64,000 nt of DNA from a plasmid. Location of the stretch: the sequence record NZ_KX443406.1; one strand, 5' to 3'. A program made the position numbers and the translations under genes. Shown one piece after another: positions 61,019 through 61,777 of the stretch. A model generated the notes under the pieces. That model made no database searches. It was given only the letters and a program-made list of their open reading frames with translations, and was not told the origin of the DNA. Within the stretch, counting starts at the first letter, position 1, and every line of letters begins with the position of its first letter.

Positions 61019-61115
61019 GTGTCAGTTTCAGAGGTCGAGTGCGCGGTCGTCATCCGGTGATCGGCAGTGCACAGCACTCCTGAGACCCGTGCGCTCGACC
61101 TCTGAAACTGACAAC
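61019..61115. repeat. Pair of inward-facing Tn402-type terminal-IR-like sequences (TGTCAGTTTCAGAGGTCGAGTGCGC) separated by 46 bp
   Basis: Left arm 61019-61044 and right arm 61091-61115 are reverse complements; 18/25 matches to the Tn402/Tn5053 IR consensus. Confidence 0.5.
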
Positions 61116-61119
61116 CGCG

Positions 61120-61198
61120 ATCCGCGCGACCTGGGCCGGATTTGTCCGGAAACTCATGTCGGAAACCTTGACGTCGAAAAGTCGTCTGTCAGTGGGTT
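61120..61198 (+). promoter_or_regulatory. res-like array of GTCsGAAAm direct repeats upstream of the resolvase
   Basis: TGTCCGGAAAC, TGTCGGAAACC, CGTCGAAAAGTCG, TCTGTCAGTGG. Confidence 0.35.
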
Positions 61199-61777
61199 AT
61201 GGAACAGTCTTGCCCCGTGAGCGAACTTTTGGGCTACGCGAGGGTTTCGACCGCTGAGCAGACTCTCGACCTGCAGAGCGACGCGCTCAGCGTCGCGGGC
61301 TGTTCGCGGATCTGGACCGACGTCGCGAGCGGCGCGACGACCAGCCGCCCGGAACTCGACAGCCTGTTCTCACATCTGCGCGAGGGTGACACCCTGGTGG
61401 TGTGGCGGCTCGACAGGTTGGGGCGGAACCTTCCGCACCTGCTGCAGACGATCACCGACCTCGAAGAGAAGGGCGTCGGCTTCCGGTCGCTGACTGAGGC
61501 GATCGACACCACCACCGCCGGCGGCAAACTCATCTTCAACATCTTCGGTGCGCTCGCGAGCTTCGAGCGAGACCTGATTCGGGAACGGACCGCCGCCGGT
61601 CTCGCCGCGGCCCGCGCCCGGGGCAAGGTTGGCGGCCGCCCTCGGAAAATGACTGACAGTCGAATCAGGCAGGCCCGAAAGATGCGTGAGGGCGGCATGT
61701 CTCAGACCGAGATCGCCGAGGTCCTCGGTGTCGGCCGCACCACTCTGTATCAGTACCTCGGCCCTCAGAAGCGCTGA
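61199..61777 (+). CDS. Serine recombinase (resolvase/invertase, TniR/TnpR-like)
   Basis: LGYARVSTAEQTLDLQ catalytic Ser block, VVWRLDRLGRN, C-terminal HTH GMSQTEIAEVLGVGRTTLYQYL. Confidence 0.85.
   Translation: MEQSCPVSELLGYARVSTAEQTLDLQSDALSVAGCSRIWTDVASGATTSRPELDSLFSHLREGDTLVVWRLDRLGRNLPHLLQTITDLEEKGVGFRSLTEAIDTTTAGGKLIFNIFGALASFERDLIRERTAAGLAAARARGKVGGRPRKMTDSRIRQARKMREGGMSQTEIAEVLGVGRTTLYQYLGPQKR

Follow-up and report, generated by a model that had tools for sequence, protein, structure and literature searches.

The DNA analyzed here, a 64,000-nt stretch of sequence record NZ_KX443406.1 (the window), is that of a Prescottella (Rhodococcus) equi virulence plasmid of the pVAPB1413/1533 type. 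We conclude, with a rough probability of 0.8, that window positions 34236-61113 are a single transposon of the Tn5053/Tn402 ('res site hunter') family, inserted in the putative res region in front of the plasmid's serine recombinase gene invA. An earlier note, made from the letters of the window, had singled out two terminal-repeat-like sequences that face each other directly upstream of this gene. The outer of the two is the right terminal inverted repeat (IR) of the transposon, which is 26,878 bp long. The inner one is an extra copy of a terminus, and we lean toward its being what is left of a second element of the same family.

Boundaries of the transposon

The features that define the ends are the following.

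34231-34235: target-site duplication ACCGC, left copy (empty-site alignment with pVAPB1593)
34236-34260, plus strand: left (tniA-proximal, IRt-type) terminal IR TGTCAGTTTCAGAACTCGACTGCAC, with 19-mer site t1; third occurrence of the repeat, placed 98 bp upstream of tniA
61020-61044, plus strand: left (inner) arm TGTCAGTTTCAGAGGTCGAGTGCGC of the facing pair, a sequence match; extra copy of a left-end-type 25-mer terminus
61089-61113, minus strand: right (outer) arm TGTCAGTTTCAGAGGTCGAGCGCAC; right (IRo/IRi-type) 25-bp terminal IR of the transposon
61114-61118: target-site duplication ACCGC, right copy (same alignment)

The empty site is found in the transposon-free plasmid pVAPB1593 (L001), where positions 1-4005 correspond to window 30231-34235 (99.98% identity) and positions 4001-6819 to window 61114-63932 (100%), with 5 bp common to both. 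The uninterrupted site has a single ACCGC, in the context ...CCGAAC-ACCGC-GATCC..., and the window reads ...CCGAAC-ACCGC/TGTCAG...(26,878 bp)...CTGACA/ACCGC-GATCC.... The empty site and the 5-bp duplication together establish that 34236-61113 is one transposon and that the outer arm is its right terminus. Homology in the closest relative (L008) and in other copies of the transposon (L100-L102) starts exactly at 34236. From left to right the element consists of the left IR, tniA, tniB, tniQ, cargo genes, rec1-rec2 and the right end. The earlier note had proposed a link between the facing repeats and a tni module at 34-38 kb, and this link holds insofar as the outer arm is the far terminus of that transposon; the adjoining res-like repeats and resolvase are not the module's missing res-tniR. 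Direct repeats of 5 bp, which the earlier note had suggested looking for around the facing pair, are absent there, and the ACCGC copies instead bound the whole transposon.

An insertion of ~27 kb and 17 genes in pVAPB1413 and pVAPB1533 was reported by MacArthur et al. 2017 (PMC5434932) and is almost certainly the same DNA. In the available parts of that paper it is treated only as an indel, with no mention of its ends, the 5-bp duplication, the res target, its family or the unit formed by the two arms.

The arms are alike at 23 of 25 positions as an imperfect reverse complement, and with a 44-bp spacer they make up a unit of 94 bp (61020-61113). The inward-pointing pair that had been described is therefore present, with coordinates 1-2 nt away from those first given, two mismatches in place of perfect complementarity and a spacer of 44 rather than 46 bp. 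When the 25-mer is sought with up to three mismatches, only the two arm positions are found in the window (0 expected from 100 shuffles). Each arm matches the Tn402 IR TGTCGTTTTCAGAAGACGGCTGCAC at 18/25 positions, the same count as in the earlier note, and this resemblance exceeds chance: exactly three sites in the window reach at least 18/25 (34236, 61020 and 61113), compared with 0-1 (mean 0.1) in 20 composition-preserving shuffles. The inner arm is identical to the right IR at 23/25 positions and to the left IR at 21/25, and the two terminal IRs (34236-34260 and 61089-61113) are identical to one another at 21/25. All are of the TGTC(G/A)TTTTCAGAAG...CTGCAC type found in the Tn5053/Tn402 family.

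This identity is also what a purely RNA-level reading of the facing repeats, as a terminator of transcription or a structured RNA behind rec2, cannot account for, since a terminator would not explain the match to the IR at 34236. If transcribed, the repeat would fold with -75.5 kcal/mol (z = -6.75), but there is no T-run, a terminator scan finds no terminator-like site, and the sole Rfam match, a miRNA hairpin, is spurious (18 bits, where the gathering score is 100). A family transposase-end sequence explains the repeat in full, and we regard the terminator or RNA reading as having a negligible chance of being correct; if the hairpin did influence read-through, this would be a side effect.

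The target: invA and its divided putative res region

On either side of the insertion lie sequences of the plasmid backbone.

34188-34215: 28-bp palindrome CGTTCGGAAAACG-GT-CGTTTTCCGAACG (13-bp arms round GT), putative crossover site I of the invA res; continuous with the sequence from 61114 on in pVAPB1593
61144-61153, 61158-61166 and 61173-61181, plus strand: three direct repeats GTCCGGAAAC, GTCGGAAAC and GTCGAAAAG with a GTCsGAAA core, putative accessory resolvase-binding sites of the invA res
61199-61777, plus strand: invA, serine recombinase (invertase/resolvase), intact open reading frame (ORF) (Pfam Resolvase, E=2.6e-45, plus HTH_7)
62914-62961, plus strand: relic of 16 codons from the C-terminus of a resolvase (75% identity by tblastn, E=0.003)

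The name invA is the one used in PMC5434932. The insertion point is 20 bp after the palindrome and 25 bp before the three direct repeats, with the non-tni end of the transposon toward invA, so that the palindrome now stands 26.9 kb from the gene. Together, the palindrome and the three repeats form a putative res site of crossover and accessory sites, as judged from their sequence and arrangement. The direct repeats are kept in the transposon-free plasmids pVAPB1593 and pVAPAMBE116, and the layout of palindrome plus repeats is kept in pVAPA and pVAPB plasmids.

The earlier note correctly located the three GTCsGAAAm repeats and the intact serine recombinase gene, and it also recognized the resolvase fragment at 62.9 kb. 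It had taken these as a possible res-tniR part of the tni module or as a second Tn402-family relic. InvA does share 47-55% identity with TniR proteins from the actinobacterial relatives, and its gene directly adjoins a family IR. However, the ORF lies outside the duplication-bounded element, and the sequence from 61114 on is 100% identical to pVAPB1593 and ~93% identical to pVAPA plasmids, both transposon-free. Since invA and the repeats are outside the duplication and present in plasmids that have no transposon, they belong to the plasmid backbone and are the target of the insertion, not a res-tniR of the element. In relatives, moreover, tniR lies inside the element after tniQ and is preceded by a res with TGTCAC-type motifs unlike those of invA, and the orientation and distance of invA fit a target resolvase. 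The res-tniR reading is contradicted by the empty-site comparison, and we consider it extremely improbable. The fragment at 62.9 kb is likewise not an element relic, because the stretch in which it falls is identical (100%) to that of pVAPB1593.

The position of the insertion has parallels among its relatives. A co-oriented serine recombinase gene starts 66-103 bp past the right end at 12 of the 37 right ends that could be evaluated and in 6/9 of the duplication-validated elements; the distance in the window is 85 bp. The relative in L051 interrupts a res of analogous layout, and empty sites corresponding to the insertion in L049 exist in L028 and L039. Two other replicons also contain the window transposon, with right-end DNA and TniB and rec2 proteins identical to those in the window, at the same position behind related but distinct palindromes. 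The first of these contexts reads TTCGGAAAACGATCGTTTTCCGAA...ACCGC; here ACCGC stands on either side of the element, and the invA allele is one of 198 aa. The second reads TGCGGAAAACGTTCGTTTTCCGAA...ATCGC. Because an identical transposon occurs in diverged flanks, these copies argue for several recent, site-precise insertions, that is, for res hunting. The element appears to have been mobile recently, with at least three insertion contexts.

One further copy lies in a 957-kb contig (L101, GCA_002095255.1, position 1691), at a chromosomal site that is not a res. Its left flank is not a res and adjoins an amidase fragment, and its right side still has the 198-aa resolvase context according to a look-up, which suggests chromosomal integration or a transposon-mediated rearrangement.

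Two features of the surrounding backbone may be noted. In pVAPB1593 and pVAPA plasmids the resolvase gene comes after the vap pathogenicity island, and a chorismate mutase gene is upstream of invA in the reference plasmids. In the window, a low-GC block (16000-30400; 57% compared with ~65%) with six ORFs of 197-204 aa (23031-30340) sits where this island would be, with the transposon directly to its right. Beyond invA, an 89-aa ORF with Cys motifs (63638-63907, minus strand) belongs to the backbone; a WhiB-family regulator is annotated in pVAPAMBE116 (L002 7868-8137), in a stretch that matches window 63635-63932 at 95%.

End architecture in related elements

We compared the ends with those of 61 actinobacterial loci that encode homologs of the window TniA, and with the Tn5053-like mer transposon of pAKD4 as a proteobacterial representative. 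Sites were predicted with a position weight matrix (PWM) built from positions 7-25 of the 25-mer termini of the actinobacterial relatives; offsets are counted inward from the terminus, with > for a direct and < for an inverted 19-mer. Left (tni) ends in these loci have sites at 7>, 50/51<, 75-77> and ~107>, and sometimes at 139, and right ends have a pair of direct sites, 7> and 29/30>. The pAKD4 transposon, which is just upstream of parA, has sites at 7>, 51<, 76> and 108> on the left and at 7> and 30> on the right. The left end in the window follows this plan (7>, 50<, 75>), as does the right end (7>, 29>), which has an additional site at 70<. The inner sites in the window are as follows.

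34285-34328: left-end sites t2, inverted and weak (34285-34303, offset 50<, score 5.3), and t3, direct (34310-34328, offset 75>, score 21.4), predicted by PWM
61067-61085, minus strand: right-end 19-mer i2 (offset 29>, score 10.2, predicted by PWM), which doubles as 't2' for the inner terminus

Site i2 is homologous to i2 of the right end in p1-WH99. As predicted by the matrix, the outer arm and the 19-mer at 61067-61085 constitute a canonical two-site right end. Matching 5-bp duplications flank the left and right ends in ten of the relatives (L011, L012, L013, L029, L034, L035, L036, L050, L051 and L053).

Several loci contain abutments in which a right terminus is followed after 4-40 bp by a left terminus (L007 5970-6035, L015 3419-3472, L020 5775-5829, and L092/L093 at ~3000-3110). 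Such head-to-tail abutments recur in Actinobacteria and beside class 1 integrons in Pseudomonas plasmids, and they fit repeated hits on one res site with little or no target immunity. The abutment of two ends that the earlier note raised as a possibility is, if taken as one of two complete elements, not supported by this comparison, because the termini in the real abutments face outward.

Two relatives have more complex arrangements. In Pseudarthrobacter sp. Y6 (L011 9766-21125), one element with an ATCGT duplication contains three extra internal right ends (14543, 19503 and 20015), each with i1 and i2, which suggests stepwise growth by the capture of successive right ends. In plas4 of R. erythropolis KB1 (L004 6284-13750), a compact element (6508-12943) is nested between two further family ends, at 6284 and 13750. 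Apart from the compact element, this outer pair encloses only ~1 kb, which contains an SMI1/KNR4 gene, and it adjoins a resolvase gene. Neither pair has a matching 5-bp duplication.

The inner arm and the 94-bp unit

The inner 25-mer is a complete terminus, including TGTCAG, in left-end orientation. Counted from it, sites are found at 7>, 48< and 70<, and i2 of the right end stands at the place that the inverted t2 occupies in a left end, 2-3 bp short. From 61067 on (i2 and i1), but not in its inner part, the unit shares homology with the right end of the element in p1-WH99. The homology of the region behind rec2 (the rec2 tail) to p1-WH99 and pVAPAMBE116, both of them P. equi plasmids, ends at ~61009, beyond which those two plasmids stay alike. 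The interval from ~61009 to 61067 is made up of 11 bp, the inner 25-mer and 22 bp of spacer. All examined copies of the transposon have the unit in identical form, and each copy of the unit that was found is at the transposon's right end.

A scan of metagenome contigs for inward-facing termini 80-110 bp apart gave 22 matches, three of which have the family 19-mers: L076 4719-4814 (96 bp), L086 6320-6417 (98 bp) and L089 29-126 (98 bp). These three have the same layout as the window unit, with canonical spacing from both termini and arms that are alike at 23-24/25 positions. No tni or resolvase genes are near them; their neighbors are a ParA gene (L076), a Mu-type transposase gene (L086) and an ArsR-rhodanese gene (L089). 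The other 19 matches are palindromes unrelated to the family and without its 19-mers. PLSDB (72,556 plasmids) yielded apparent full-coverage matches to a metagenome mini-unit, in proteobacterial plasmids, that proved to be outward-facing tandem abutments and not mini-units, with the IRi of a class 1 integron followed after 37-40 bp by the IRt of another element.

Within an element, t2 and i2 share the same absolute orientation as direct repeats of each other. A deletion between them is therefore predicted to leave a unit of exactly 96-98 bp. On the basis of these sequence comparisons, the account we narrowly favor is that the 94-bp unit represents fused minimal ends (t1, a shared t2/i2, and i1) left by another element of the family, or by a miniature derivative, that ended up at the right-hand edge of the transposon. 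Such an element would have collapsed between its t2 and an i2, and the resulting unit would travel as the tip of the large transposon. Only the outer terminus would serve transposition, because the duplication belongs to 61113 and 34236 as a pair, and the unit by itself is flanked by none.

Two other explanations assign the inner arm a different origin. Rather than a relic, it might be a functional accessory site at which TniA binds in the right end, with a role, for example, in modulating the assembly of the transpososome or the choice of ends. The arm has persisted without change through several moves of the transposon, in all its copies, and is thus at least tolerated, its PWM score is 21.7 compared with 21.3 for the terminal site, and an inverted site is normal in the left ends of the family. 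However, all of the copies are near-identical, which deprives this conservation of weight, and the arm contains the terminal TGTCAG hexamer that internal accessory sites do not have. In addition, an inverted site near offset 70 is present in none of ~44 other right ends, including the homologous right end of p1-WH99 and that of the compact rec1/rec2 element in L004. We consider an accessory function unlikely.

We are equally doubtful of a local origin, in which fold-back or template switching would have duplicated the terminal 25-mer in inverted form and a second element would have played no part. The greater similarity of the inner arm to the right than to the left IR would be expected in this case, the arms of the metagenome units are similarly alike, and the searches turned up no left end with this spacer that could be the parent. 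The left and right IRs of full elements can differ by as little as 0-2 nt, though, and the similarity of the arms does not discriminate between the two origins. Fold-back also leaves unexplained the left-end distance between t1 and t2, which is nearly reproduced here and exact in three unrelated units.

The unit also has the form of a MITE (a miniature transposable element with inverted repeats): terminal inverted repeats, no coding capacity, a length of 94 bp and family 19-mer sites, with similar solitary units in metagenome contigs. The IR-spacer-IR mini-unit of the earlier note is in this respect a fair structural description. An independent MITE insertion next to invA is nevertheless contradicted already and must be rated very improbable. 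The flanks of the unit, GCAGG and ACCGC, are not a duplication; the right-flank ACCGC pairs instead with the copy at 34231-34235, 26.9 kb away, and the sequence to the left of the unit is transposon cargo and not pVAPB backbone. Additional copies of the unit, which had been suggested as a check, were not found in the window, and PLSDB gave no full-length match, only matches to i2 plus i1 or to a single 25-mer; P. equi chromosomes were not exhaustively covered by this search.

Several observations weigh against the origin by fused ends and the wider account of the element. The TniA sites are predicted from the PWM and by analogy. The unit has no 5-bp duplication, nor do the three metagenome analogs, and either a deletion in place or an independent MITE insertion would usually leave one. 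The spacing of 48 from t1 to the middle site is 2-3 bp shorter than canonical, and the 11 bp from ~61009 to the inner arm are not accounted for. In a two-element origin the left end of the parent would be TGTCAGTTTCAGAGGTCGAGTGCGCGGTCGTCATCC; no element with a left end and spacer matching 61020-61066 was found among 68 loci or in PLSDB, the nearest being a solo end on a Dietzia plasmid that matches at 23/25 positions and has an unrelated spacer. Inward-facing pairs are absent in the relatives (61 genomes and PLSDB), and no inverted site was seen in the other right ends checked. Finally, the role of rec1/rec2 in resolution is putative, proposed by analogy, and rec2 has no recognizable catalytic domain.

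We found no description of Tn402-family fused-end units in the open-access literature; a review of prokaryotic MITEs names Tn402 only for unrelated MITEs that flank integrons. A broader proposal, which we put forward tentatively and think will probably not hold, is that the 94-98-bp arrangement of t1, shared t2/i2 and i1 is a recurrent minimal substrate of Tn5053/Tn402-family transposases, and an unrecognized class of MITE that could be mobilized in trans and recruited by larger elements as a replacement end. The same tentative proposal holds, as a separate matter, that this lineage has exchanged its serine resolvase for a tyrosine recombinase pair as its system for cointegrate resolution.

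Gene content of the transposon

The genes between the two ends are listed below.

34358-36043, plus strand: tniA, Mu/Tn7-type DDE transposase (Pfam rve, Mu-transpos_C, HTH_Tnp_Mu_2)
36046-36951, plus strand: tniB, AAA+ regulator (Pfam TniB, E=2.7e-75; coordinates of the called gene)
36948-38177, plus strand: tniQ, target selector (Pfam TniQ, E=4e-16; coordinates of the called gene)
38178-58789: cargo, including glyoxalase/bleomycin-resistance-like, FAD monooxygenase, IS256-family transposase, thiolase, GTP-PEPCK, SulP transporter and alpha/beta hydrolase genes
58790-59965, plus strand: rec1, tyrosine recombinase (Pfam Phage_integrase, E=1.7e-9, plus a SAM-like domain; called start 58871)
59962-60942, plus strand: rec2, divergent rec1 paralog (25% identity), final gene of the transposon (no Pfam or NCBIfam match)

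The tniA-tniB segment is ~72-73% identical in nucleotide sequence to Tn5053-type elements across ~2 kb. Neither tniR nor any other serine resolvase gene is present inside the transposon, and the only serine recombinase homologs in the window are invA and the 16-aa backbone relic. In most of the actinobacterial relatives tniR directly follows tniQ. The compact relative of R. erythropolis KB1 plas4 (tniABQ-rec1-rec2, L004 6508-12943) has the tyrosine recombinase pair in place of tniR, and rec1-rec2 are kept as a pair in L004, L094 and L095. The translation of rec1 shows the HxxR and Tyr motifs. An NCBIfam search added nothing for rec2 or tniQ, and alignment of the regions upstream of rec1 in the window and L004 revealed no conserved block that might be a rec1/rec2 resolution site.

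By the rules of the family (PMC7765201), TniA would be brought by TniQ and TniB to a res site at which its resolvase is bound, and transposition would be replicative, via a cointegrate. Because the element has no tniR, the cointegrate would have to be resolved in another way, by rec1/rec2, by InvA or by host recombination.

The rec1-rec2 pair (~73% nucleotide identity) also occurs directly upstream of another Mu-type transposase and ATPase pair, and on its own, in R. qingshengii pCP2 (L094 6889-11430) and R. opacus pKNR (L095 6864-9049); the pair acts as a portable module of two genes among plasmids of Rhodococcus. The tail downstream of rec2 (window 60954-61010) has a 57-bp copy of 89% identity just downstream of invA in the horse-type plasmid pVAPAMBE116 (L002 4784-4839), which has no tni genes or family IRs at this place, and another copy in p1-WH99 (L003 5372-5428). 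These copies may be a footprint of the rec1/rec2 module or of its recombination site.

The cargo varies between copies. A block of 7,657 bp (38741-46397), with the glyoxalase-like gene, the FAD monooxygenase gene and the IS256-family transposase gene (45027-46313), is missing in L100-L102, which are otherwise 99.8-99.9% identical to the window transposon and have an 8-bp overlap at the block junction. The block looks like a later, IS256-associated acquisition. The transposon copy in the ERZ6863860 contig is 19,663 bp long.

Implications and comparison with known systems

The ~27-kb larger size of some porcine and human R. equi pVAPB virulence plasmids corresponds to a single insertion of an intact and evidently still mobile res hunter. 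The plasmid's putative multimer-resolution site is split by this insertion, and plasmid stability may be affected. The res site of invA emerges as a hotspot for further gene acquisition beside the vap pathogenicity island. More generally, the Tn5053/Tn402 end architecture and res hunting are conserved in Actinobacteria, with one sub-lineage that has tyrosine recombinases and no tniR. The fused-ends unit would offer a natural 'minimal ends' substrate for asking what TniA must recognize.

The closest known systems are Tn5053, Tn402 (Tn5090) and Tn502. Like these, the window element has tniA-tniB-tniQ beside one end, the same array of 19-mers, a 5-bp duplication, insertion in a res and its non-tni end nearest the target resolvase gene. 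By the rules described for the family (PMC7765201), its members show a 5-bp direct repeat, insert preferentially in res and have IRo as the end closest to the gene of the target resolvase; the window transposon conforms to all three. Its 25-bp IRs are identical to the Tn402 IR at 18-21/25 positions, and those of its relatives at up to 22/25. It differs from Tn5053, Tn402 and Tn502 in having an actinobacterial host, no res-tniR, a rec1/rec2 tandem at its right end, 20 kb of metabolic cargo between tniQ and rec1, and an extra inverted full terminus at the right end.

The tni-defective relatives of Tn402, such as the class 1 integrons In0 and In2 and Tn6606, also lie in res sites and have no resolvase function of their own; their resolution has been ascribed to the resolvase of the target site and to host recombination (PMC7765201). 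The window element likewise has no serine resolvase of its own and sits in a putative res site, but its tniABQ genes are intact. With MITEs and Tn3-derived inverted-repeat miniature elements (TIMEs), the 94-bp unit shares the property of consisting only of two transposase-recognition ends. Unlike them, it has no target duplication, no multiple copies and no sign of movement of its own, and it forms the tip of a large transposon.

In the Tn3-family replicative transposons Tn4430 (TnpI) and Tn4651 (TnpS/TnpT), a tyrosine recombinase replaces the serine resolvase for cointegrate resolution. The window element has a transposase of a different family, and the likeness of rec1/rec2 to these systems is proposed by analogy only. 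The inner arm is a structural curiosity and indicates no new kind of system. The transposon belongs with the res hunters of the Tn5053/Tn402 family, among which it is a variant by virtue of its lack of tniR, its rec1/rec2 pair and the inverted terminus added to its right end.

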